UHGV virus genome: UHGV-0110229
Reading direction: 5' to 3' (one strand)
Length of the DNA: 53,808 bases
Origin: a virus
The notes under the pieces are model-generated. The model saw only the letters and a program-made list of their open reading frames with translations. It did no database searches and was not told the DNA's origin. Both the position numbers and the translations under genes were made by a program. Numbering within the stretch: position 1 is the first letter of the stretch; every line of letters begins with the position of its first letter. Of this stretch, positions 5,117 to 53,400 are shown in pieces.

Positions 5117-5134
5117 TATGTTATTTCCTCCGGT

Positions 5135-6253
5135 TTACAAAATGGAAAATTCAGGGTAATAAACAAAGCGCCCGATCTCACCATGATCCGGGCTGTAGAT
5201 GATAACCGCCGCCAGGCGACGCGACCGCCATCCGCCATTAGTCGAATAAGCATCCTTACCGGCTAACGTGCCGTGGTGCTCAACAATTCCGAGCGACGTT
5301 TCAACGACTGATTGATGGTGCAGATGTCCAGTGTGCGCGTAAACAGCAACCGACTTCCCGAAATCCTCGCGCCAGTCAGAGACGCAAGCAGCCAATAAAT
5401 TTTCAGGCTTTTTGATAGTGTGCCCGTGGTGGTAAGCGAGAAATGTTTTACCGTACTGCGTGTGGTGAACGATAGCAGGTGACACATCAACCGTCACACG
5501 CGGTTCATCTTCGTAAAAAGCCGCCAGCGCCGCACGTAACCAGATCATCCCTGACTGATCGTGATTGCCTGATAACACCTGGATTTCAATATCCTTATGA
5601 TTTAACAACATCTTACCTACAGCACGCCGGACAGACCTGATCGCTACATAGACAAGTTTTGCATAACGACTATCTTGATCAAGAATGTGCCCGCTTGTTG
5701 GCGTAACCGGGACCATTCCATCAGAATGAAGCAGGTCGCCACCTAGAAGCAAAACGGCTTTTTCAGACATCGGCGCGGCGCCCACAGCGTAGTCAAAGAA
5801 GTCATTCAACACGCGCTCAGCGATCCCGGTGTCGTAGCTCTCGCCGCATTCTGCTTTGTGAGCAAGTGCGCCGATATGCAGATCAAATACCGGATAAAGG
5901 GCCAGGCTTTTTTGGAAATCAATTTCCGGCACTGGCACGGCCTCCGCGCGTGGTATTTCTTCCGTGAATGCGTCGCGGGCCGATTCCATTAGCTGTTCCA
6001 TTTCATCGCGGTCACGGGCTGTTTTAATCCAGCGCATGATCACATTGCCGTTCTTATCGACTAGCAACGACTCGCCATTGACGCCAAAACCAGGCGCGCG
6101 GCGTGTTGACAATAAACCGCGTTTCGCCAGTTTTGCCCCCAGGCGCTCTACGTTGCGTTTTGACATGCCGTACTTTTCAGCGATCTGCTTGTACGTTAAA
6201 CCGTTGTTATATTCAGCGATCAATTGCTCATCGCTTATCTTTCTTTGTGACAT
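5135..6253 (-). CDS. HTH domain fused to calcineurin-like (Mre11/SbcD-type) metallophosphoesterase
   Basis: 372 aa; N-terminal HTH (LTYKQIAEKYGMSKRNVERL); phosphoesterase motifs DLHIG, GGDLLHSD, SGNHD, YHHGH, HTGHLHH. Confidence 0.6.
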   Translation of the reverse strand: MSQRKISDEQLIAEYNNGLTYKQIAEKYGMSKRNVERLGAKLAKRGLLSTRRAPGFGVNGESLLVDKNGNVIMRWIKTARDRDEMEQLMESARDAFTEEIPRAEAVPVPEIDFQKSLALYPVFDLHIGALAHKAECGESYDTGIAERVLNDFFDYAVGAAPMSEKAVLLLGGDLLHSDGMVPVTPTSGHILDQDSRYAKLVYVAIRSVRRAVGKMLLNHKDIEIQVLSGNHDQSGMIWLRAALAAFYEDEPRVTVDVSPAIVHHTQYGKTFLAYHHGHTIKKPENLLAACVSDWREDFGKSVAVYAHTGHLHHQSVVETSLGIVEHHGTLAGKDAYSTNGGWRSRRLAAVIIYSPDHGEIGRFVYYPEFSIL

Positions 6254-6287
6254 AGTGTCATTTCCTCACGAATAACAAATTGTATAC

Positions 6288-7028
6288 TTAGTTACAAGTT
6301 AAAAGCTCAGTGATCCATACTTGTCCTTTAGCAGTGAATACAGCCTGCTCATATCCATCGTGAGTTACCCTCATTTCACCGTAGCCCTCATCAATAAACC
6401 ACTGACTGAATACACGGCGGCGACAGCGAAGATCGTAAACACCAACCGCCGAAAGTTTTCTGTTTAATTTTACGGCTGACATTCCCAGCGGTTTAGCTAC
6501 CTCTGAAGCCGTTCGGTGCATATCGTTTTTGACTATCGCGTCACATACAGCCGCTTTCGGAGCCAGCACCTTGTTTTCAAGCGTAAGCCGTTCATTTTCT
6601 TTCTTAACTAACAATTTTTGCTCAACCTCATCCGCCCATGCGCGGGCTGCCGCAACCGGATCAGTGAAATCCGGCAAAGCTAGTTTGTGTTGCGCCTCCT
6701 CCAACTCTTTAACGCGTTTAATTACCTTCATGCGTTGCTTAACGTCATAGCCAGTGATCAAGCACATTGTTAGCTCTTTATTTAGCAAAACCTCATCAAT
6801 GACGTTGCGACCTTTGTACTGCTTGTACTTAAACAAAAACCCTATAAATTCAAAATCCTGCATTTTTGCAGGATAAAAATCATGTTCAGTAAACCCTAAA
6901 TCTAGCAGCATGTTTTTAATATCACGCACAACCACAGAAGAATGATCCTTGTCTGTTGCTTCTGCTATTTCACGCGATGAAATCATTAATACTTCGCTAT
7001 CGACATCAAAAACCATCAATTCAGACAT
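6288..7028 (-). CDS. Rha-family regulator with KilA-C (antirepressor-type) C-terminal domain
   Basis: Start taken at MSELMVFDV (GGAGAAAA RBS upstream); N-terminus Rha-like, C-terminus KilA-C-like; ORF track gives a longer 6288..7088 version. Confidence 0.55.
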   Translation of the reverse strand: MSELMVFDVDSEVLMISSREIAEATDKDHSSVVVRDIKNMLLDLGFTEHDFYPAKMQDFEFIGFLFKYKQYKGRNVIDEVLLNKELTMCLITGYDVKQRMKVIKRVKELEEAQHKLALPDFTDPVAAARAWADEVEQKLLVKKENERLTLENKVLAPKAAVCDAIVKNDMHRTASEVAKPLGMSAVKLNRKLSAVGVYDLRCRRRVFSQWFIDEGYGEMRVTHDGYEQAVFTAKGQVWITELLTCN

Positions 7029-8454: not shown

Positions 8455-8705
8455 TCCTCCGGCAACATAACTACATAGACACCACTAAACGCATCAATAC
8501 GGCAAACAAACCCTTTGCTAATTAATGCGGCGAAGGCATCATGTACCGTATGAACAGGAAGTTCACACATTTTTGCTACTTCTTCGCGTGATACGCTTGT
8601 CCGCCCCTGGCTATCCGCCGTCTCAGCAAGGGCGATCAAAACTAGTTTTTGAATCGGGCTGTTAAGTTTTACGTTCCATGCTTTGCTAATTATGTTCATG
8701 CTCAT
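8451..8705 (-). CDS. HTH DNA-binding protein, first gene of leftward early operon (Cro/cII-position)
   Basis: 84 aa from ATG at 8705..8703 with AGGAG RBS; HTH-like segment REEVAKMCELPVHTVHDAFAAL; divergent from cI. Confidence 0.45.
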   Translation of the reverse strand: MSMNIISKAWNVKLNSPIQKLVLIALAETADSQGRTSVSREEVAKMCELPVHTVHDAFAALISKGFVCRIDAFSGVYVVMLPEE

Positions 8706-8887: not shown

Positions 8888-8903
8888 CTTGCATCCTTGC
8901 AAG
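8888..8903. promoter_or_regulatory. Candidate operator palindrome in the cI/cro-side intergenic region
   Basis: CTTGCA-TCCT-TGCAAG perfect 6-bp inverted repeat; further TGCAAG/CTTGCA half-sites at 8921 and 8976. Confidence 0.35.
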
Positions 8904-9011
8904 TATGGACTTACCTTGTCTGCAAGTTTACAGAATGGCGTTAACAGGTCAAGGATTGAAAAATACATTTTGTGACTTGCATCAAACTTTTTTAGCTTAT
9001 AGGGTAGCGAC

Positions 9012-9659
9012 ATGAAAACAAAATGGTATGACTTGGCAAAACAACTCATGCGGGCGCAGGGCATGAGTCAGGATTCACTGGCTGATCTCATGGGGATAAC
9101 AAAAGGCGGCTTGTCGCACTGGCTGAACGGTCGCCGTGAGCCAAATCTTGAAGATATTGCGCGGATCATGCGGGCGCTTGGGCGTCGGCAATTCACTGTC
9201 ACACATGATGGGATGGTCATCGATGATTCTGTTTCTAACACGTTACCGGGAGCGCCACCGCGTGATTTAGGCAGTTACCCGGTTGTTGACTGGAAGGACG
9301 CAGTAAACAATATGGAAGATGCAAGGCGATCAACATTACCACACGTTACAACTAGCGTTATTTGTTCTGATGATAGTTATTGGCTGGTAGCTAAAGGCGA
9401 ATCAATGAACGCTCCGCAAGGATTGAGTATACCAGCGGGGACGATGATACTTGTCGATCCGCACGCGCCAGCTATTGACGGCAAACTAGTTATAGCCCAA
9501 CTGGAGGAAGGGCAAACTCCTACGTTTAAACAGCTTGTTATTGATGGAGGTCAAAGGCTTTTACGTTCACTCAATCCGCTGTATCCACCGATCCCTATGA
9601 ATCCAGAATCTAAAATCATAGGTGTGGTAGTGGATGCGAAGATCGTAAACCTGCCATAA
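9012..9659 (+). CDS. cI: CI-type prophage repressor (HTH + S24 LexA-like autopeptidase)
   Basis: 215 aa; N-terminal HTH (QDSLADLMGITKGGLSHWLNG); C-terminal S24 motifs (AKGESM Ser, later Lys). Confidence 0.85.
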   Translation: MKTKWYDLAKQLMRAQGMSQDSLADLMGITKGGLSHWLNGRREPNLEDIARIMRALGRRQFTVTHDGMVIDDSVSNTLPGAPPRDLGSYPVVDWKDAVNNMEDARRSTLPHVTTSVICSDDSYWLVAKGESMNAPQGLSIPAGTMILVDPHAPAIDGKLVIAQLEEGQTPTFKQLVIDGGQRLLRSLNPLYPPIPMNPESKIIGVVVDAKIVNLP

Positions 9660-9689: not shown

Positions 9690-9781
9690 GCTAAAAAACA
9701 CCAAAACGTAAACAGAAAACCATGTTTATCATTTAAATATCAAGTGCTTATAAAATTTTATAAAAAAGTATACAAAATGTG

Positions 9782-9819
9782 TTGACTCGTGTTTTTACGG
9801 GGCGTATATTTCGAGTCAA
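9782..9819 (+). promoter_or_regulatory. Sigma70 promoter (PL-like) embedded in an operator palindrome
   Basis: TTGACT-17 nt-TATATT; flanked by perfect inverted repeat TTGACTCG (9782-9789) / CGAGTCAA (9812-9819); AT-rich upstream. Confidence 0.6.
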
Positions 9820-9852
9820 AAGGAGGAAGCAAGGCAGGGAAAGAAGGTTACT

Positions 9853-9890
9853 TGCTCTTTAATAATCTGGTCAGCCGCTGGAAGTGCGGC
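9853..9890 (+). promoter_or_regulatory. nutL-like site (boxA + boxB hairpin)
   Basis: TGCTCTTTAATAA matches boxA (rrn-type TGCTCTTTAACAA); then hairpin GCCGC-TGGAAGT-GCGGC; lies between promoter and the N-like gene. Confidence 0.6.
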
Positions 9891-9946: not shown

Positions 9947-10237
9947 ATGACAGTTACAATCATGTATGGCAAATGTGACAGTAAACTGAATGCCAGGGAA
10001 CGCAGAAGAATAAAAAGAGAAAACGAAAGAAAATCATCACCTGCAATTAATAAAACAGACAATGTGGATAAAGCTATTCGCTTTGCAAACGAGGAAAGAT
10101 GCAAACCAAATAGCATTAAAGAACGTCGCAAAGGAGCAGTAAAATGGTATACGGAAAATGAAAGCGGCAACTACTACCACGCAACGCAACCACGCCATTT
10201 AGGGGAAAAACCACTTGATAAAGTCCGTTACCATTAA
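9947..10237 (+). CDS. N-type transcription antiterminator (P22 gp24-like, N-terminal arginine-rich motif)
   Basis: 96 aa; N-terminus MTVTIMYGKCDSKLNARERRRIKRE resembles P22 N as recalled (MTVITYGKS..NAKTRRHERRRK); AGGAG RBS; first gene after promoter and nut. Confidence 0.7.
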   Translation: MTVTIMYGKCDSKLNARERRRIKRENERKSSPAINKTDNVDKAIRFANEERCKPNSIKERRKGAVKWYTENESGNYYHATQPRHLGEKPLDKVRYH

Positions 10238-10267
10238 TACAAAATGTAAACAGCCGGAGGTGACGTT

Positions 10268-13614: not shown

Positions 13615-13713
13615 CGTTGTGGTTGCGATCGCATAAATATACGTTTTGTGTTGCGATCGCAAATCCGTTTTGTGAACTGAAATCAAAAGGTTTACGGCGC
13701 GGAGGAAAACAAG

Positions 13714-17193: not shown

Positions 17194-17290
17194 AATTTAC
17201 AAAATGGCGTCATTGCGTGATGTGGATCACATAATGGCGCTTTTTACCTTGTTCTGACGTATCCATTTTGTATACTTCAAACAAGCAAAA

Positions 17291-17325
17291 TGCTCTTTAA
17301 AAATCCGGCAGCGCTGAAATGCGTA
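17291..17325 (+). promoter_or_regulatory. Internal nut-like site (boxA + weak hairpin) upstream of the ninF/ninG-like genes
   Basis: TGCTCTTTAAAAATCCGG then CGC-TGAAAT-GCG; the 17-mer GCTCTTTAAAAATCCGG is identical to the leftward nut-like site. Confidence 0.4.
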
Positions 17326-18786: not shown

Positions 18787-18965
18787 AAAACGAAATTAAA
18801 GATCTGCAAATAGATATTCAGCGCGATGAGCATGATTTAGAAACGGTCCGACAAATCCAGGCTTTTCATATGCGCGAATTGCTTGCATTGAAAGAGCTTG
18901 AGAGAAAGTTAGTTCAGTCTATTTCTGATCGTAAACACCTTATTGCTCGTTACGGGGGCAAGTAA
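18783..18965 (+). CDS. Hypothetical protein
   Basis: 60 aa ORF. Confidence 0.3.
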   Translation: MKNEIKDLQIDIQRDEHDLETVRQIQAFHMRELLALKELERKLVQSISDRKHLIARYGGK

Positions 18966-19687
18966 TGAATCTGGAATCTATTCTCAAATTCCACTTCCCA
19001 AAATCACCGCGTTTATCAGATGAAAGCCGGGGCACGTCCCCGGATGCACTTAATACTACGGATGCACTAACAGCAGCAGGCATGGCGCAATCGCGCGTAG
19101 AGCTTGGTTATAGCGCTTTTTTAGGGAAGATGGAACTATCACAAGCCGAAAAACATAAGGCCGTAGTTTTGCTTACAGAGCGTTTAAGGACTATGGCAAA
19201 AGATTATGAATACGTTATGGAACTGGACGAGGCCAAACGCAATGATCTTATTATTCTTGTTGCCGTTTTCGCGTTTCGGGATTATTGCCAAAGCGCCGCG
19301 ACGGAAAAAACTTGCCCGGAGTGCGGCGGATATAAATTTACGTTTGACGACTACGGAGAAAAACACCTTTGCAAAAAATGCAAGGGGCATGGGACAGTTC
19401 GCAATCATTGTAAACAATGCAAGGGCCGTGGCGAAGTACCGGATAAAGCAGCCAGTGAAGCGGCGGAAATGCCAGTGTTCAAAACGTGCCAGCATTGCGG
19501 CGGGCGCGGGTACTCGCGTTTCCCTGTAGATCTTGTACGGCAGGCGGTTAATCAGCTTGTTTTTCCGGTAAGCCGATCAACATGGTGGAAAAAGTACCGG
19601 GCTTTCTATGAAGACGCCATTGCTGAATTGTTCAAAGAAGAGGCGCTGGCAGATAACGAAATTAAAAGAGTGACGCGGGGTGAATGA
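18965..19687 (+). CDS. DnaJ-type zinc-finger protein (4x CxxCxGxG); positional candidate for late antiterminator Q
   Basis: 240 aa; four motifs CPECGG, CKKCKGHG, CKQCKGRG, CQHCGGRG; located after ninG/rusA where Q sits in lambdoid phages; function not established. Confidence 0.4.
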   Translation: MNLESILKFHFPKSPRLSDESRGTSPDALNTTDALTAAGMAQSRVELGYSAFLGKMELSQAEKHKAVVLLTERLRTMAKDYEYVMELDEAKRNDLIILVAVFAFRDYCQSAATEKTCPECGGYKFTFDDYGEKHLCKKCKGHGTVRNHCKQCKGRGEVPDKAASEAAEMPVFKTCQHCGGRGYSRFPVDLVRQAVNQLVFPVSRSTWWKKYRAFYEDAIAELFKEEALADNEIKRVTRGE

Positions 19688-22220: not shown

Positions 22221-22330
22221 TGGTATTGCTTTCACGCAATAAATATAAAACGTGATCTACCTCGCAAAATATACGAAATGGCATTGTTTCGGCAGTGCCA
22301 TTTTGTTATATATAAGCCACCGAAAGACGG

Positions 22331-23893: not shown

Positions 23894-23958
23894 AGCCGTA
23901 TTTGTGGGTCGAAAACAAACAGATTAAAATATTACCTAACAATGCGAAAGTGTAACTA

Positions 23959-23980
23959 CCCGGCCCCGTGCCGGGTTTTT
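23959..23980 (+). terminator. Rho-independent terminator upstream of lysis cassette
   Basis: CCCGGC-CCCGT-GCCGGG followed by TTTTT. Confidence 0.6.
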
Positions 23981-37078: not shown

Positions 37079-37495
37079 TTATCTGAACCTTACTATTTCA
37101 ATTCTGCCGTTGCCCAAGTCAATGATGGCATGATTTTTTATACCCGCGCCGCCTTCGTTAAATATTCTTTCAGCAAATGCGGCTTTATCAGCGTTACACT
37201 CATTGGCTATTCTGTTTCTTATTTCATCGTTGCCTTCGAATACGACGCCTACAGCAGCCTCCTTCACAAGCCCCCAGTTAAACCATCTTGCGTAAACTGG
37301 TTTACCTTCGAAATGCTTATCAATTGCTTCATAAAAAACCTTAATGGCGGCCGGTTCCTTCTTGAAAATTTTATGGTATTCGGCAACGTTGTTTGCTACT
37401 TCATTGCAGTTTATGTTTATTGCTTCGTTTGCATTGGCGTTGAATGCCATACCAACCATTACCGCCATCACCGCCGCTTTGATTAACCGTTTCAT
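37079..37495 (-). CDS. Secreted/periplasmic moron protein (signal peptide), function unknown
   Basis: 138 aa; N-terminal signal peptide MKRLIKAAVMAVMVGMAFNANA; opposite strand to the tail operon. Confidence 0.5.
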   Translation of the reverse strand: MKRLIKAAVMAVMVGMAFNANANEAININCNEVANNVAEYHKIFKKEPAAIKVFYEAIDKHFEGKPVYARWFNWGLVKEAAVGVVFEGNDEIRNRIANECNADKAAFAERIFNEGGAGIKNHAIIDLGNGRIEIVRFR

Positions 37496-37507
37496 AACCC
37501 ACCCCGC

Positions 37508-37594
37508 TTAGTTTTTATTTTTAAGTGCTTTCAGCATTTCTTCTATAAAGTCGGCATAGTGCTCATGCTCGTTGGGTCGGTAGTAGTTTTTCAT
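37508..37594 (-). CDS. Possible small hydrophilic ORF (28 aa) upstream of the secreted moron protein
   Basis: MKNYYRPNEHEHYADFIEEMLKALKNKN with AAGAGGAT RBS; 12 nt upstream of the moron gene. Confidence 0.25.
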   Translation of the reverse strand: MKNYYRPNEHEHYADFIEEMLKALKNKN

Positions 37595-37751
37595 TTTCTT
37601 ATCCTCTTTTGCTTCCTCCGGTTAATCCGGCCTTTTAAGTCCCTTCGCTCTATCCCTTTTCTTTATCTTCTTTATACAAAATGTACTCGTTGAAGTGAAG
37701 CCATTTTGTATAAAATAGAGACGTGGATCACATTTCGTATGAGGTTAAATC

Positions 37752-40125: not shown

Positions 40126-40300
40126 AGTTATTCTCAAAACTTGTATATCCTCTTTCAATTTTCCCTCCGTGTACACTTCTGGCAAATACCGCGTCAGTAT
40201 ACCTGAAAAATGGGCATGTATATGTATCCCCTTTACTATCCATATATTTTAGCACCCACGCCATACGTTTTACGTTGCTTTTATTTGCCGGGTTTTTCAT
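40124..40300 (-). CDS. Moron B gene 4, hypothetical (58 aa)
   Basis: MKNPANKSNVKRMAWVLKYMDSKGDTYTCPFF..; GGAGG RBS. Confidence 0.3.
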   Translation of the reverse strand: MKNPANKSNVKRMAWVLKYMDSKGDTYTCPFFRYTDAVFARSVHGGKIERGYTSFENN

Positions 40301-40318
40301 TTTATTTTCCTCCGCAAA

Positions 40319-40411
40319 TCACAATCTTCCGTTTCTTGCTACATAGCTGCGAGCAAACATCACCTGCCAGATGTTCCAGATCTCCCTCCAGGTGAATTTA
40401 TCGTCATCCAT
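40319..40411 (-). CDS. Moron B gene 3, hypothetical (30 aa)
   Basis: MDDDKFTWREIWNIWQVMFARSYVARNGRL; GAGGTGA RBS. Confidence 0.25.
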   Translation of the reverse strand: MDDDKFTWREIWNIWQVMFARSYVARNGRL

Positions 40412-40419
40412 ATTTCACC

Positions 40420-40674
40420 TCATTTATGTGCCCCTTTTACGCCACAGTGGCGGTTGTATTCCAGATGGTCAATAATTAACCACATCTTTAGATCTTCGCT
40501 GAATAACCGCCAATCGGGGTTGATGTCAAATTTATAACCGTAGCCATCGCGTAATTTTTTGGGGTTGGCCTCTTTTTTCAGGAAAGCATTTAATAAAGCC
40601 TTGCCTTTTTTGATGATCCGTTCCTGGGCGTTTTTCTGTGCTTTCAGGTTTTTGCCAATCATTACCAATTTCAT
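40420..40674 (-). CDS. Moron B gene 2, basic 84 aa protein
   Basis: Lys-rich; 20 nt downstream of gene 1. Confidence 0.4.
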   Translation of the reverse strand: MKLVMIGKNLKAQKNAQERIIKKGKALLNAFLKKEANPKKLRDGYGYKFDINPDWRLFSEDLKMWLIIDHLEYNRHCGVKGAHK

Positions 40675-40694
40675 AACTCACCCCACGCAATCAA

Positions 40695-40850
40695 TCAGTT
40701 GACCACTTTCAGGAAGAAATCACGGTATTCATCTTCTTTTGCATTCATCATAAATTGACCGTATTTGAATGCATCATCAAAACCCTTCACAATCGCAACT
40801 TCCACCTGTTCGAATGCTTTGTTTAGCATTACCACTACATAGCGTTCCAT
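40695..40850 (-). CDS. Moron B gene 1, acidic 51 aa protein
   Basis: MERYVVVMLNKAFEQVEVAIVKGFDDAFKYGQFMMNAKEDEYRDFFLKVVN; GGAGG RBS. Confidence 0.3.
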   Translation of the reverse strand: MERYVVVMLNKAFEQVEVAIVKGFDDAFKYGQFMMNAKEDEYRDFFLKVVN

Positions 40851-40891: not shown

Positions 40892-40920
40892 TATATACAT
40901 CTTGTCACGTCATGTGTGAA
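40892..40920 (-). promoter_or_regulatory. Sigma70-like promoter for moron B (reverse strand)
   Basis: On the minus strand TTCACA-17 nt-TATATA; a plus-strand TATAAT at 40939-40944 may drive gpM. Confidence 0.4.
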
Positions 40921-41019
40921 GCCGTTTTGTAAACTGGGTATAATTCTTGTGACAAAGTTCTCATTTTTCGCGTAGAAGCGCGTAAAGATGTATGCAATAT
41001 GTAACTTATAGGGGGAATC

Positions 41020-41373
41020 ATGCCGGAAGTTTTCAGATGGACGCCGCAAAGAAGCTACAGCGTGACCAGGGAACCAAATGTGTCAGTCGTTAAACTTGGT
41101 GATGGTTATGAGCAAAGGCAGGCAAAAGGTATCAACACATTACTTGATAGCTACACCCTGGTTTTTAAAGGCAGTAGCGCAGGATGCGGTGATAGCGGGA
41201 ACGTAGCGATCCAGGCGGAAGCATTCTTGAGGGCGCGCGGCGCTGTCGAGGCTTTCTACTGGACGCCGTCGATGGATAGGGTGCAAAGGCTTTTCGTTTG
41301 CCGTAGCTGGAGTATGACTAAGGACGGACCTGTGTACACGCTAAACGCAACGTTTGAACAAGTTGTTGGCTAA
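41020..41373 (+). CDS. M: Minor tail protein M
   Basis: 117 aa; resembles lambda gpM as recalled (FRW, GDGYEQR, ..FEQVV C-terminus). Confidence 0.75.
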   Translation: MPEVFRWTPQRSYSVTREPNVSVVKLGDGYEQRQAKGINTLLDSYTLVFKGSSAGCGDSGNVAIQAEAFLRARGAVEAFYWTPSMDRVQRLFVCRSWSMTKDGPVYTLNATFEQVVG

Positions 41374-41600: not shown

Positions 41601-41749
41601 GTCAGTAGTTAATGTAAATCAAACTCATTGGGTGAGCGTGCGCCATATTATTGGCTATCGCCGCCCAATCCCAATCAGCAGCGTGAACGCCAAATACTAT
41701 AAGTCCCATTATTATTAGCGCCAAAACTTCTATTTTCATAATCTGTCAC

Positions 41750-41998
41750 CTATAAGTTATCACGCAGATAATTAACGCCCTTATCAGTGACGAATGAATG
41801 GTTAACCTGGTTTTCATCCGTCATGATGATGAATAACTTTTCCTGTAGGTATTTCGCTTTTGGGTACAGTGTTAAACAGACTTGATACAGTATCCCGCGC
41901 TCAATCAGCAAATCAATAAATTCGTGTTCATGATAACCGATGAGGCGGGCGGCCTGTTTCAACGTGTACACATAATCGCCGTGATTGCGCCGCCCCAT
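41750..41998 (-). CDS. Moron C gene 3, 82 aa protein with possible HTH
   Basis: Segment TLKQAARLIGYHEHEFIDLLIERG resembles an HTH. Confidence 0.4.
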   Translation of the reverse strand: MGRRNHGDYVYTLKQAARLIGYHEHEFIDLLIERGILYQVCLTLYPKAKYLQEKLFIIMTDENQVNHSFVTDKGVNYLRDNL

Positions 41999-42007
41999 GT
42001 TGCCGCC

Positions 42008-42358
42008 TTATTTATCGAATGCGCCCAGGTTATCTATGCAGAAATCTTTTGCCGCTTTTTCGTATTCGCGTTTTGCTTGCGGATCGTCTGCCGGGAAACC
42101 TTTTGCGTGTATTTCACCAGGGCAAGACTGATCCATAGAGTCAGCAAGGTTAACATTGACATTGAAATTGACATCTTTCGGGTTCATCTCTTCCACCTTA
42201 TCCGGTACTTGTACTGGAACAACATAATAATAACGAGCATTAGACCAACAGCGCAGTAATTCACGACCTTCATCACACGCTGATTCATATGTATCAAATA
42301 GCCCCATGCGTTCCCATTCGTATTTATCAGTCCACACGTCTAATCTGTATTTTTCCAT
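42008..42358 (-). CDS. Moron C gene 2, 116 aa hypothetical protein
   Basis: ORF with Cys and aromatic residues; no family recognised. Confidence 0.4.
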   Translation of the reverse strand: MEKYRLDVWTDKYEWERMGLFDTYESACDEGRELLRCWSNARYYYVVPVQVPDKVEEMNPKDVNFNVNVNLADSMDQSCPGEIHAKGFPADDPQAKREYEKAAKDFCIDNLGAFDK

Positions 42359-42373
42359 TTTTTGTTATAACCC

Positions 42374-42559
42374 TCATTTGACAGGTTCGATCCTGTACCC
42401 CAAAACGCGTTCGTCTTCAGCGAGTAAGAGCGCGTCGGTAAGTGCCTCGCCTTCATCTTTATACAGGGCCACAGTCATTTTCCTGCCATCCGCAAGGAAC
42501 ACCGTCAACCTCCACACCTTGTCATCCATTTCACACCTCCGCGCCATTTTGTTAACCAT
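42374..42559 (-). CDS. Moron C gene 1, 61 aa hypothetical protein
   Basis: Start at MVNKMARR (ATG 42559..42557) downstream of promoter with AAGGAAG RBS; track ORF extends to 42616. Confidence 0.4.
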   Translation of the reverse strand: MVNKMARRCEMDDKVWRLTVFLADGRKMTVALYKDEGEALTDALLLAEDERVLGYRIEPVK

Positions 42560-42575
42560 GCTTCCTTTTGAGTAC

Positions 42576-42604
42576 AATATACATATTGTAAAAAACGCGA
42601 TCAA
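42576..42604 (-). promoter_or_regulatory. Sigma70-like promoter for moron C (reverse strand)
   Basis: Minus strand TTGATC-17 nt-TATATT; adjacent direct repeat TGATTTAG x2 at about 42616-42633. Confidence 0.45.
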
Positions 42605-42657
42605 CCGTTTTGGCATGATTTAGCGTGATTTAGATCACAAAATGACAAGGTGATAAA

Positions 42658-50031: not shown

Positions 50032-50056
50032 CCCCGCTTCGCGCGGGGTTTTCTTT
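50032..50056. terminator. Bidirectional rho-independent terminator after J and the lipoprotein gene
   Basis: CCCCGC-TTCGC-GCGGGG with A-run upstream and TTTTCTTTT downstream. Confidence 0.65.
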
Positions 50057-50304
50057 TAGTAGTTAGCTACACAGTTAGAAGGGCTACCGATGCGGCGCAT
50101 GTTGTGATCGAGTTCGTGACACCATTGACCAGTATATGGCAGTTTTTCAGTGTCATAGACTAGATGCCCGCCACCATCATAAACAACATCTTGCGGAATT
50201 ACTCCACTATTCGGCAGGTTATGCAATGCAGCCTCTTTGTCAACAGAGCAACCAGTAAGAGCAACAGCCGCAGCGAACAAAACCACTTTGAACACGTTTT
50301 TCAT
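50056..50304 (-). CDS. Small lipoprotein moron (candidate Cor/Llp-type superinfection exclusion protein)
   Basis: 82 aa; signal peptide with lipobox LTGC; opposite strand between J and stf. Confidence 0.5.
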   Translation of the reverse strand: MKNVFKVVLFAAAVALTGCSVDKEAALHNLPNSGVIPQDVVYDGGGHLVYDTEKLPYTGQWCHELDHNMRRIGSPSNCVANY

Positions 50305-50481
50305 TTTTGAACCCTCATTCTTGTTTGTTAATCCGGTTCACCCGGTGACTTAAATATCCGGCAAAACCACATTTCGTATATTGACACAGATCAACAAATA
50401 CATTTTGTGTAAGCAGAAAATGCAACACAGATCACAAAATGGTAGAATTATTCCGTTAATTAACAAAATGGAGTCATCGAG

Positions 50482-53400
50482 ATGATTTACACAACTGGAA
50501 CAATTGCCATCAGCGGCAATACTGTTACAGGCACGGGCACAAACTTTTCCGCGCCGCTTTCTCTTATTCGTGTAGGTTGCACGCTCATTGCTGTTGGCAA
50601 CCCTGTACAGATCTTTACCATCACGGAAATCAAAAGTGGTACTGAACTGTCAGTGACGCCAGCGGCTAACCCCGCCATCCCTGCCGGGACAAAATTTAGC
50701 ATCCTGCTATCTGACTCGATCTCAGTTGATGGGCTTGCTCAGGACGTGGCTGAAACCCTGCGTTACTACCAGAGCAAAGAAACAGAAATCGCCTCCGCTG
50801 TAGAGTGGTGGGAAGATTTCGGCGGCGAAGGTCAGTTGGATCAGCTTCTTACCAACATTCGCGCAGAAACAGCACAATCAACCGCCAACGCTCAAAAAAC
50901 AGAAACTGACAAAAACGCAGCAGAAGCGTCAAAAACAGCGGCTGCAAAATCTGCCACAGCAGCGAAAACATCAGAAACTAACGCTAAGGCAAGCGAGACG
51001 GCAGCGAAAACAAGCGAAACCAACGCCAAAACATCAGAGAACAGGGCGCAAGAATATCTGAATCAGATAATAAGGTCTAACAACGCATTGGTACAATGCA
51101 ATTGGCCTGTTACAACTGAAGCCTTTGCCCGTTATGTGAAGATCGCTAAACTAACCGATCCGGGTGCAGTAAGCTGCCATTTAACACTAATGATCGCCAA
51201 TGGCGGTAACTACGGTACAAGTTACGGGAATATTGACTTTGTAGAGATCTCCGCTCGCGGTCTTAGCGATGTGGAAAGCATAACCAGTGAAAATATAACT
51301 AAATTTTTAAGTGTTCGCCGCCTCGGATCGCCTAACCTTGCTAATGACAACCAAATGCGTTACGGCCTGGTTAAAGGTGACGGCTATATCGAGGTCTGGT
51401 GCTACCAGCGAGCTTTTATTAAAGAAACAAAGGTTGCGATACTGGCACAGACTGGCAGAACTGAATTATACATTCCTGAAGGGTATGTCGTTCAGGAAGC
51501 CGAACCCGCTGGATATGTTGAAAGCCCAGCAGCAAGGATTTACGATCAGGTAAACAAACCAAGCAAGGCAGACTTAGGCCTTTCTAATGCTATGCTTATA
51601 GGCGCTTTTGGTCTTGGCGGCAGCGGTCCGTCATCAAACGGCATGATGAGCAATACAGAGCTATTAAAAGCACTGCGTGCAAAAGGTAGTCATTTCTGGC
51701 GTGCTGATAAGCCTGACGGAAGCACAGCGACACATTACGCCCACGGTTCTGGTATATTCTCTCGGTGCGGTGATACATGGTCGGCGATCAACATAGAATA
51801 CGAAAATGCCAGAGTTAAGATTTTCGCTGGCAATGATAACAAACTTGAAACTGCAACTTATGCCGTAAATGAGCTATACGGAACCAAAAATAAGCCGTCG
51901 AAATCTGACGTTGGACTTGGCAACGTAACTAATGATGCGCAGGTGAAAAAATCCGGCGATATTATGTCTGGCGACCTGGCGGTCTATAAAGATACTCCGT
52001 CACTATTCCTTAGGGCAAAAGATGGAGCAGGTGCTGCCGCTGTGCGGTTTTTCACTGATCAAAACCTGGAGCGCGGCATAATCTATGCTATTCAAAACAC
52101 TGATACGCTTGGAGAAGTTCGCATTAGGGCTAAAAACGCAAAAGGTGAAACAAACGGTGATCTTGTTGTTCGCCACAACGGGGTGGTTGAGGTTCAGAAT
52201 CTCACAGCGGCTAAAAAAGTAAAAAGCGTAAACGCAGAGCTTGCAAACACATCAACTAACACGCTTGAGAACACGTTAAAAATCAGCGGTCAACAGCATA
52301 CTCCATTACTTTTAACGCGTACCGGTTATACTGAAAACCTATCCATTGGCTTTAAGGTTGACAACCTTGATCAAAAATATCTCGGAATCAATGGCAGTGG
52401 AGATCTAGCTTTTGGTAAAAATGCTGATCATAAACAAAACAGCAGAGTGATTACGCAAGCAATACTGGATAGCGGGGTGACGGTAGGCGGCAAAACAACA
52501 TTTTCTGACCTTGCCACATTTAACGCAGGTATGGCTGGAGCAATTGAGCCTGAAAGCATTTCTGAAGTGGCTGTTGATCTTAATAATCTGACCATAAAAG
52601 GCACAGATAAAGGTTCAGTTAAATACTATCACTGCAGAACTGCCGGAGGCGGTGCAAATATTACCAATAAGCCTGCTGGCATAGGTGGTAACTTTTTGCT
52701 TCGTGTAGAGTCAATTCGTAAGATCACGGATTCAGATTATACAAACTTGCAAACCCTTGTTGGCACAGACACAAAACAAATATACGTTCGCTATTGTGAA
52801 AATGGCAATTGGTCTGCATGGAGTCAGATTGTTGTTTCAGGAAGAAATCAGGATGTAACCGTCAGGTCGTTAACCTCGACGACTCCATCAAAATTAGGTG
52901 GCGGGCGTATTGATGTGCTTGGGAGTACGTCAGATTATAACAGCATGAATTGTACCGTGCGCGGTGTTGATAGCAGCGGAACTAATTCTGCGTGGTCAGT
53001 AGGCACATCAGTAGACACTGGCAAAATGTTGTTCCTGAAAAACCACAGAAGCAGCGCTCAAGTGCTGTTAAATGGCGATGACGGCGCGGTTCAACTACTA
53101 AGCGGTACTGTCAACGGTGCTACAGCACAGGCGCTAACCATCAACAAAGATGAGGTTAACTCAACTGCTGATTTAGTAATTAGAAAACAAACAGGGACTG
53201 GCAATCGTTTTGTTTTACAGAACGCAGGTAATGCAGAACTACCGTTTTCTGTCAGTGTGTGGGGTTCCAGTACTCGACAAAACGTTTTTGAGGTTGCCAC
53301 GTCTGCTGCGTATCTGTTTTATGCGCAAAAAACGTCAGCAGGCCAGTTGTTTGATGTAAATGGCGCTATTAATTGCACAACGCTGAATCAGTCATCAGAC

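Follow-up and report, generated by a model that had tools for sequence, protein, structure and literature searches.

Candidate operators of a CI-like repressor dispersed through the genome of a temperate mEpimmI-group phage

Gene map and the recurrent intergenic motif

We analyzed the virus genome UHGV-0110229, 53,808 nt in length and referred to here as the window, for a short motif, the 8-mer ACAAAATG (or CATTTTGT), that recurs in its intergenic regions and probably forms the core of operators for the phage repressor, Rep. The window holds nearly the whole genome of a temperate siphophage from the mEpimmI group, related to phages mEp021 and mEp010. Its tape-measure region is 89–91% identical to those of mEp010, mEp021, mEp044, and mEp554, and related prophage DNA is present in more than 800 E. 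coli genomes. mEpimmI phages reportedly match lambdoid phages in frequency among human-faecal temperate coliphages, and a new family was proposed in 2025. A genomic description of the group defined three nut sites and no operators or promoters; it also showed experimentally that Rep021 confers immunity (PMC11893012).

The gene map is based on the mEp021 and mEp010 annotations, whose proteins were transferred to the window. An integrase gene (1–1200) and a leftward early operon, which reaches ~8783 on the minus strand, precede rep (9012–9659, plus strand). The rightward early operon contains an N-like gene (9947–10237) and erf, SSB, and methylase genes, and a Q-type antiterminator (PF03589) is encoded at 18965–19687. 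Lysis genes start at ~24000, and the head genes come next. Four minus-strand cassettes interrupt the tail genes at ~37082–37595, ~40136–40850, 41605–42529, and 50056–50304. The second includes a ParE-like toxin gene (40420–40674), and the third encodes Ant, an antirepressor with a KilAC domain (41750–41998). Bidirectional terminators flank all four cassettes, which are missing from more distant tape-measure relatives in other hosts.

Rep is a CI-like repressor with an N-terminal helix-turn-helix (HTH) domain (HTH_3) and a C-terminal Peptidase_S24 domain, and it is the protein proposed here to bind the motif. It matched the lambda repressor structure (PDB: 3bdn) with E = 2.7e-19, is 95–98% identical to the mEp010 and mEp021 repressors, and its homolog clusters carry PF01381 and PF00717.

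Counted on both strands, ACAAAATG/CATTTTGT is present in 18 exact copies, compared with 4.95 ± 2.3 in dinucleotide shuffles of the whole window (0 of 100 reached 18) and 4.6–4.8 ± 2.2 in shuffles within 100- to 500-bp blocks, a control for local AT-richness (0 of 500 reached 18; maximum, 11). Fifteen of the 18 lie in intergenic DNA, which makes up 3,666 nt or 6.8% of the window (binomial p ~2e-15). With 14 copies, ACAAAATG is the commonest intergenic 8-mer; the next unrelated word has 5. The original prediction that the motif is mostly intergenic and far more frequent than chance was therefore correct. All 12 positions named in it hold the motif with an offset of no more than 1–2 nt, the true 8-mer starts being 8966(−), 9772, 10239, 17199, 17264(−), 22299(−), 37676, 37702(−), 42637, 50401(−), 50434, and 50463. 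Six further exact copies had been missed (1179, 5137, 9018, 22936, 34013, and 42545(−)), and those at 1179 and 9018, within coding sequence, are probably incidental. The proposed inverted pairs are also real, with exactly 18 bp between the 9-mers at both 37676/37702 and 22272/22299; in a scan, 115 loci of varied spacing matched the pattern TACAAAATG-N14-30-CATTTTGTA. Longer repeated words are present where they had been reported (CACATTTCGTAT at 37729 and 50368, GTGGATCACA at 17222 and 37723, and GTTAATCCGG at 37621 and 50327), but approximately 1,460 repeated 10-mers and 97 repeated 12-mers are expected in local shuffles, so two-copy words of this length carry no weight alone. The 12-mer CACATTTCGTAT, which reads ATACGAAATGTG on the opposite strand, is itself one more member of the motif family. 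A literature search for the motif gave no useful match.

Homologous regions from 30–50 IMG/VR contigs were aligned to assess conservation. At 37.7 kb, the motif arms at 37675–37683 and 37702–37710 show little or no variation across 32 distinct sequences; the 15–18 bp between them vary, and the adjoining leftward cassette is replaced by unrelated DNA in several lineages. The same pattern of a retained copy in changing flanks was found at 42545, 42637, 8966, 9772, 17199, 17264, 50401, and 50434; the copy at 50463 is not kept in relatives. Across the 15-mer sites proposed below, 91% of columns are identical to the window, compared with 79% of other intergenic columns.

Conserved blocks beside variable cassettes are what would be expected if the motif provided joints for module exchange between related phages, as had also been suggested, and at 37.6 and 50.3 kb a conserved motif block does directly adjoin cassettes that differ wholly between relatives. 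Many copies nevertheless sit at non-mosaic junctions (PR, 10239, and 17264), 8–15 bp of identity is very short for homologous exchange, and the motif also occupies classical operator positions in unrelated prophages and keeps a helical register with promoters (see below). We regard a recombination function as very improbable, and it is not needed to explain the data; conserved operators beside variable cassettes could incidentally favor exchange as a by-product of their conservation.

The alignment also bears on whether the inverted pairs act as RNA hairpins in termination, processing, or transcript stability. The pairs do fold as RNA (−12 to −24 kcal/mol; z −4.2 to −6.5), and a terminator stem at 17.2 kb, like one in the distant relative L341, is bordered by the arms, which provide its A/U tracts. 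However, when 17 distinct versions of the 37.7-kb pair were compared, 10 of its 13 arm pairs were constant, changes at the others break a pair or make it a wobble, none is compensatory, and the covariation score is not above that of shuffles. The lack of compensatory changes fits protein recognition rather than RNA pairing. Many copies are single, the 37.7-kb hairpins have no U-run, and an Rfam search found no family matching the inverted pairs; an RNA function is accordingly rated slightly lower still than recombination.

Putative operator boxes and recognition helices in other prophages

Similar boxes were found in prophages with only distantly related repressors. IMG/VR contigs L097–L099 encode a repressor that is 36% identical overall to Rep but shares an identical N-terminal arm (MKTKWYDLAK), and its recognition helix, VSKGAVGHWMTG, is similar to the window's ITKGGLSHWLNG. 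Between the divergent cro-like and rep genes of these contigs are three boxes, AAGTATACATAAAGT, AAGTATACAGATTGT (AAGTATACATTTTGT in L099), and AGGTATACATAACGT, with more boxes ~1.7 kb downstream. In the window, AAGTATACAAAATG occurs at PR and, on the opposite strand, at 17.2 kb. The switch region of Citrobacter prophage L343 (helix ITQGGLGHW) carries ATACATAACGT, ATACAAAATGG, and ATACGGATTGT, and its next promoter has CCGTTTTGTAT running into TGACG together with the palindrome AATACGTTATGTATT. Some foreign boxes read literally ATACAAAATGG, or CATTTTGTAT followed by TGACG. Lambdoid prophage L344 (helix ITKGAVSHW) has two to three switch-region boxes, the third scoring 13.9 bits with the matrix described below, and three more ~2 kb away. 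Shewanella prophage L346 (helix VTPGGMGHW) has the same layout, located upstream of a boxA.

The Rep homologs of L097/L099, L343, L344, and L346 share the MK(T)KW arm and a (T/S)(K/Q/P)GG/A..(S/G)HW recognition helix. In these four foreign prophage types, ATAC(A/G)WWWW(Y)GT boxes are confined almost entirely to two clusters, approximately three between the divergent cro-like and rep genes and two to three at a second promoter region, so that these classical relatives have five to seven sites in total. A Vibrio homolog with a different helix, VAQGTIARY, is accompanied by different boxes, TATACCAATTTGGATA and TTCCAATATGGAA (TACCA..TGGA), and no matrix match of at least 10 bits was found at its locus. 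Thus, the five prophage types with a ..GG/A..(S/G)HW helix share TAC(A/G)-WWW-(Y)GTA, and the boxes change when the helix does, which indicates that the box tracks the repressor and its helix rather than the phage type or host. As far as sequence comparison can tell, with a single contrasting case, the operator sequence co-varies with the recognition helix. Profile searches with a Rep alignment gave no confirmed locus in genome contigs and no further repressor types in viral contigs.

A 19-column weight matrix was built from 17 boxes of foreign prophages L343, L344, and L097/L099 only (consensus AAAATACATAATGTATTTT); L346 was left out and served as an independent test. Applied to the window, this foreign matrix gave 12 matches of at least 13 bits, compared with 1.02 ± 0.96 in 500 local shuffles (maximum, 5). 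All of the top 10 matches, and 13 of the top 14, are intergenic, and they include sites with no exact ACAAAATG (6272–6286, 13638–13652, 40991–41005, and 42578–42592). At syntenic places, mEp021 and mEp010 each had 10 matches of at least 12 bits, where 1.65 and 1.38, respectively, were expected. A distant member of the same family, whose Rep is 56% identical with an identical helix, had 9 matches in 20 kb against 0.89 expected; there, ACAAAATG is again a top intergenic 8-mer, and a near-perfect palindrome, TATACAAAACGTATA, lies at the N-gene junction.

Candidate sites and their position at predicted promoters

From these comparisons, the full site is probably a 15-bp pseudo-palindrome, (T/A)ATAC(A/G)-WWW-(Y)GTAT(A/T), with ACAAAATG as its core. 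Sites in the window have a strong left half (TATACA or TTTACA), an A-rich center, and a weak right half (TGT.. or TGG..). Approximately 13 strong and 12 weaker copies are spread over at least 10 loci between 5.1 and 50.4 kb. They lie at PR, at PL with the rep promoter, at gene junctions within the leftward and rightward early operons, at the promoter that precedes nutR2, and around 22.3 kb; the others mark the four promoter regions at which leftward accessory cassettes (ParE-like toxin and antirepressor among them) break up the tail genes. Scores below refer to the foreign matrix.

In the segment flagged by the original prediction, candidate operators TATACAAAATGTACT (37673–37687, plus; 15.2 bits) and TATACAAAATGGCTT (37698–37712, minus; 13.7 bits) lie 25 bp apart between two divergent predicted promoters. 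The first is centered at −16 of the leftward cassette promoter and −43 of the rightward tape-measure promoter; the second is centered at −18 of the rightward promoter, whose predicted −10 is TAAAAT (37711–37716), and at −41 of the leftward one. Each site overlaps the −10 of one promoter and abuts the −35 of the other, which makes the region a compact module. A third copy, CATACGAAATGTGAT (which corresponds to CACATTTCGTAT; 37727–37741, minus), is weak and poorly conserved and lies in the tape-measure 5′ leader.

At the immunity switch, candidate site TTTACAGAATGGCGT (8927–8941, plus) covers the −10 of PL (center −16) and is centered at −42 of a plausible rep promoter, TTAACA-17-TACATT; its core, ACA.AATGG, is kept in 26 distinct relatives. 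The neighboring AATACATTTTGTGAC (8962–8976, plus; 17.8 bits), 35 bp away, covers the −10 and start of the putative rep promoter (center −7) and is centered at −51 of PL. At predicted PR (TTGACT 9782–9787, 17-bp spacer, TATATT 9805–9810), candidate operator TATACAAAATGTGTT (9769–9783, plus; 17.3 bits) abuts or overlaps the −35 with its center at −41, and AAAAAAGTATACAAAATG within it is invariant in 35 distinct relatives. An inferred companion site 25 bp away, TATACGCCCCGTAAA (9794–9808, minus), would cover the spacer and −10 (center −16); it scores low in the matrix because its center is GC-rich.

The first 30 nt of the predicted PL transcript contain two adjacent palindromes, CTTGCATCCTTGCAAG and ACTTACCTTGTCTGCAAGT (8888–8924), which are kept in relatives and unique within the window; a different regulator may bind there, or they may form an RNA feature ahead of nutL. 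CTTGCA-N4-TGCAAG (8888–8903) was rejected as a Rep operator, being present beside PL only with nothing similar at PR. In the PR leader, upstream of the nutR1 boxA (9829–9855), the window has GCAAGG...CTTGC where most relatives have GCGCAGG...CCTGGC; retention of the inverted repeat with a different sequence suggests a conserved RNA stem.

Inside the early operons, AATACAAAATGTAAA (10236–10250, plus; 18.2 bits) lies between the N-like gene and the next gene, and TATACAATTTGTTAT (6272–6286, minus; 18.2 bits) lies in a 31-bp gap of the leftward operon. A weak copy, TTTACAAAATGGAAA (5134–5148, plus), comes after the upstream gene's stop codon and before the helicase ribosome-binding site. Here, the window has only a 30-bp gap with a motif copy (5117–5146), where mEp021 (6046–6583) and mEp010 (5304–5894) carry an HNH homing-endonuclease gene between the helicase and upstream genes. 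In the rightward operon, candidate site TATACGTTTTGTGTT (13638–13652, plus; 16.3 bits) is followed by a weaker second copy at 13662–13676. The same intergenic gap contains TTGCGATCGCA twice in 13623–13662, 28 bp apart, the second copy being the 12-bp palindrome TTGCGATCGCAA; each precedes an operator-like CGTTTTGTG, which gives a direct repeat of ~24–28 bp.

At 17.2 kb, a weak copy, TTTACAAAATGGCGT (17196–17210, plus), lies at the 5′ flank of a terminator hairpin, and candidate operator TATACAAAATGGATA (17260–17274, minus; 17.5 bits) covers the spacer and −10 (center −16) of a predicted promoter, TTGTTC-16-TATACT, directly upstream of the nutR2 boxA (17292–17300). At 22.3 kb, candidate operator TATACGAAATGGCAT (22270–22284, plus; 14.9 bits) is centered at −42 of a predicted rightward promoter, and a companion copy 25 bp away, ATAACAAAATGGCAC (22295–22309, minus), at −17.

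The remaining sites are in the tail cluster. At 40.9 kb, TATACATCTTGTCAC (40894–40908, plus; 9.5 bits) covers the −10 of the leftward cassette promoter, TTCACA-17-TATATA (center −16), TTTACAAAACGGCTT (40919–40933, minus), 25 bp away, is centered at −41, and TATGCAATATGTAAC (40991–41005, plus; 11.2 bits) lies upstream of the minor tail gene at 41020. The best-scoring candidate site (42578–42592, plus; 21.1 bits) falls within a perfect palindrome, TACAATATACATATTGTA (42573–42590), and covers both −10 hexamers of two overlapping, divergent predicted promoters, of which the leftward one drives the Ant (KilAC) cassette. Flanking it are a conserved copy with a low matrix score, TTAACAAAATGGCGC (42541–42555, minus), over the −35 of the rightward promoter TTGTTA-18-TACAAT; CCGTTTTGG (42602–42616, plus; CCATTTTGG in relatives), which abuts the leftward −35, TTGATC, with its center at −40; and a conserved copy, ATCACAAAATGACAA (42634–42648, plus), which overlaps the right half of a CRP-like palindrome and lies 3 nt ahead of the tail L-like ribosome-binding site. 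At 50.4 kb, candidate operators TATACGAAATGTGGT (50366–50380, minus; 17.4 bits) and AATACATTTTGTGTA (50397–50411, plus; 11.0 bits) precede a conserved copy, ATCACAAAATGGTAG (50431–50445, plus), that is directly upstream of or overlaps the extended −10 of the tail-fibre promoter (TGGTAGAAT; center −17). Some motif copies also give rise to tiny upstream open reading frames: AUG ACA AGG UGA (42639–42650), which overlaps the tail L-like ribosome-binding site, and AUG GAG UCA UCG AGA UGA (50468–50485), which ends in the AUGA that starts the tail-fibre gene. Both are probably coincidental because neither has its own Shine-Dalgarno sequence.

Taken together, site centers fall at −16 to −18 of nine predicted sigma-70 promoters (PL, PR, the promoter before nutR2, the 22.3-kb promoter, both 37.7-kb promoters, the leftward 40.9- and 42.6-kb promoters, and the tail-fibre promoter), and seven of the nine also have a center at −40 to −43. 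Paired sites are 25 bp apart, center to center, at PR and at 22.3, 37.7, and 40.9 kb, and 24 bp apart at 42.6 kb. This spacing, ~2.3 helical turns, is compatible with cooperative binding; other spacings in the window are 31–35 bp, and those of the foreign tripartite clusters are 33–34 and 25–27 bp. Clustering over the −10 and −35 at the switch region and early promoters is a layout common to L343, L344, L097, and L346.

A register this regular could mean that RNA polymerase itself reads the motif, either as an UP-like A-tract upstream of the −35 or as a T-rich spacer beside the −10. ACAAAATG(G) ends 1–3 nt before −35-like hexamers at PR, at 37.7, 40.9, 42.6, and 22.3 kb, and at the putative rep promoter; CCATT(T/C)TG abuts −10 hexamers at PL, 17.2 kb, and 37.7 kb; and ACAAAATGG fits seven of nine positions of the proximal UP subsite consensus, AAAAAARNR. 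UP elements, however, are degenerate A/T tracts, whereas C2, T7, and G8 of the motif are near-invariant. They would also be expected at −38 to −59 in one orientation, but the motif is found at −16, −41, −51, and +0 in both orientations, with reversal at the −10 of the tail-fibre promoter. A single RNA polymerase contact cannot explain several registers and both orientations beside −10 and −35 hexamers. Copies also occur away from any promoter, the best sites are palindromic (42578–42592 and L343 AATACGTTATGTATT) in a way that RNA polymerase elements are not, and the boxes of unrelated prophages are confined to operator clusters and shift with the recognition helix. An intrinsic promoter element is therefore unlikely, if the least improbable of the alternatives to Rep operators. 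The suggestion that the motif marks a promoter class held insofar as the motif lies in constant register with the predicted −10 and −35 hexamers, but not in the sense that RNA polymerase reads it; the register is fixed because operator and promoter form one lambda-like module.

An extended −10 or sigma-specific element was rejected because TG is one position off both ways and the orientation differs between promoters. A Q-binding element was also discarded: the likely late promoter before the holin gene, TTGTGG-17-TAAAAT (23902–23930), has no ACAAAATG copy. The Q gene lies 4.2 kb upstream of that promoter, separated from it by many small genes, and a likely terminator follows the promoter, formed by the hairpin ACCCGGCCCCGTGCCGGGT and a T-run (23958–23976).

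Binding by a host global regulator (CRP, IHF, Fis, or ArcA) instead of a phage protein appears the most remote of the explanations considered. Some copies overlap CRP-like palindromes, CGTGA-N6-TCACA (17216–17231 and 42624–42639), and one overlaps GTTAATTAA, which resembles an ArcA box, but most copies fit no host-factor consensus, and the boxes follow the repressor gene and helix type in hosts from Escherichia to Shewanella. None of the IHF, Fis, ArcA, CpxR, LexA, and MarA consensuses fits most copies. CRP was rejected as a general reader since one of the two good palindromes is a terminator stem and the CRP-like left half at 37.7 kb is not conserved. The palindrome at 17216–17231 is the top of a conserved terminator hairpin with a variable loop. 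The one at 42624–42639, at approximately −62.5 of the leftward 42.6-kb promoter, has conserved halves and a variable spacer and is therefore a candidate class I CRP site.

Probable Rep operators and comparison with known repressor systems

We consider it probable (roughly 75%) that the motif copies are operators of Rep and probably also of its Cro-type antagonist. The original prediction had listed a shared regulator-binding site among its alternatives, with CI as a test protein, and this is the alternative supported by conservation, foreign boxes, and promoter geometry. Rep dimers would bind sites that are often paired 25 bp apart (33–35 bp in some clusters), a distance that would permit lambda-like cooperative binding. 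One site of a pair would cover the spacer and −10 of a sigma-70 promoter (approximately −16) and its partner would abut the −35 (approximately −41), and occupancy would thus shut the promoter. In back-to-back modules, such as 37673–37712, the same two sites would serve both divergent promoters. Relative to the two classical clusters of related prophages, the operators would have been multiplied and dispersed through the genome. We infer from sequence that Rep, and probably the Cro-type protein, binds these sites, that the predicted promoters are active, and that they are repressed in the lysogen.

Several observations weigh against this interpretation. Clear palindromes are present at 42573–42590, at 10236–10250, and in L343 (AATACGTTATGTATT), L344, and L346, but a statistical search beside the motif found no consistent dyad axis in the window's own 17 copies. 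The right half usually reads TGG instead of TGT, and for a dimer many sites would thus be half-good at best. Conserved copies at 42548, 42641, 50438, and 22302 score near zero with the foreign matrix, and those at 5141, 10243, 13645, and 42641 are near ribosome-binding sites or inside operons with no predicted promoter; such copies may serve another role or none. Most promoter assignments were made by eye with some guidance from the motif, and an unbiased promoter scan, in the region that it covered, returned only the 42.5-kb pair. The foreign prophage operators were assigned from position only. CI also classically activates from a center at −41, and regulation at single-site promoters may therefore be of either sign.

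The broader proposal, that Rep directly governs promoters genome-wide, including the bidirectional modules of the tail cluster and the antirepressor and toxin cassettes, is more tentative, and we hold it somewhat less probable than its converse. If it is true, late and accessory expression would be partly gated by Rep occupancy and not by the N/Q antitermination cascade alone, and long-range looping between at least 10 operator loci would be possible. Through unpartnered sites at −41 or −42, Rep could even activate some cassette promoters in the lysogen.

The element would be of an ordinary kind, a repressor operator, with a distribution that is unusual for a CI-type repressor. As in lambda, the repressor is a CI sequence homolog with HTH and S24 domains, and the 15-bp pseudo-palindromes, with one strong and one weak half, lie over the −10 and the edge of the −35. 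Neighboring sites are 25 bp apart here, and the OR1–OR2 spacing of lambda is 24 bp. The two sites of the putative rep promoter (−42 and −7) resemble OR2 and OR3, and N-type nut sites lie downstream of the controlled promoters. Unlike lambda, with its two operator loci, the window has at least 10, which include late (tail) promoters and operon interiors; rep is co-directional with PR, and PL is the divergent partner of the rep promoter; and the operator is unrelated in sequence to TATCACCGC. Recognition of a 434-type ACAA half-site was rejected because the Rep helix is TKGGLSHW, not QQ.

The dispersal of 12 sites of at least 13 bits and weaker conserved copies over at least 10 loci (5.1–50.4 kb) is closer to phage P1, where one immunity repressor, C1, acts on dispersed operator copies at many transcription units, including an antirepressor unit, as proposed here. 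The P1 operator is an asymmetric 17-bp sequence that C1 binds as a monomer. C1 is an unrelated protein, whereas the repressor here is CI-like and its site pseudo-symmetric, and membership of the C1 type by descent is therefore not expected. Mycobacteriophage L5 is similar in that dozens of short sites for its repressor, gp71, lie in short intergenic spaces genome-wide. However, these stoperators are asymmetric, oriented with transcription, and block elongation, and the proteins are unrelated. Most sites in the window overlap predicted promoters, and no single orientation was found, the intergenic exact copies being eight ACAAAATG and six CATTTTGT relative to rightward transcription. The 18-bp palindrome at 42.5–42.6 kb, on overlapping divergent −10s of which one drives the KilAC cassette, recalls P22 immI (Pant/Pmnt with Arc/Mnt), but it fits the Rep operator family and not the Arc/Mnt type, and no ribbon-helix-helix protein was identified in the 42.5-kb cassette.

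The analysis provides an operator consensus, approximately 25 candidate sites, and immunity-switch promoter predictions for a recently described and apparently common phage group. They suggest that many promoters across a genome can be placed under one CI-type repressor, a design otherwise seen chiefly with the unrelated repressors P1 C1 and L5 gp71. This is relevant to the silencing of accessory cassettes and tail genes in lysogens, to the spread of induction, and to predicting from sequence which immunity group a related prophage of Citrobacter, Shewanella, or another host belongs to.

Two further features of the immunity switch were noted. In alignment with lambda CI and homologs, Rep differs from lambda CI in having no obvious Ala-Gly self-cleavage site (residues ~88–105). 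The site is also missing in P0008 (56% identical to Rep) and is present in lambda (VQAGMF), L097 (VQAGAF), and P0009/P0013 (SAGEW/SAGDW); the Ser and Lys motifs of Rep are retained (GESM and FKQL). Induction may rely on the Ant cassette and not on RecA-stimulated cleavage of Rep. The gene in the Cro position (8463–8699, minus), the first of the leftward operon, encodes a protein with no Pfam match in the window and only 36–37% identity to its mEp021 and mEp010 counterparts. The neighboring rep is 95–98% identical, and a mosaic joint lies within the immunity switch.

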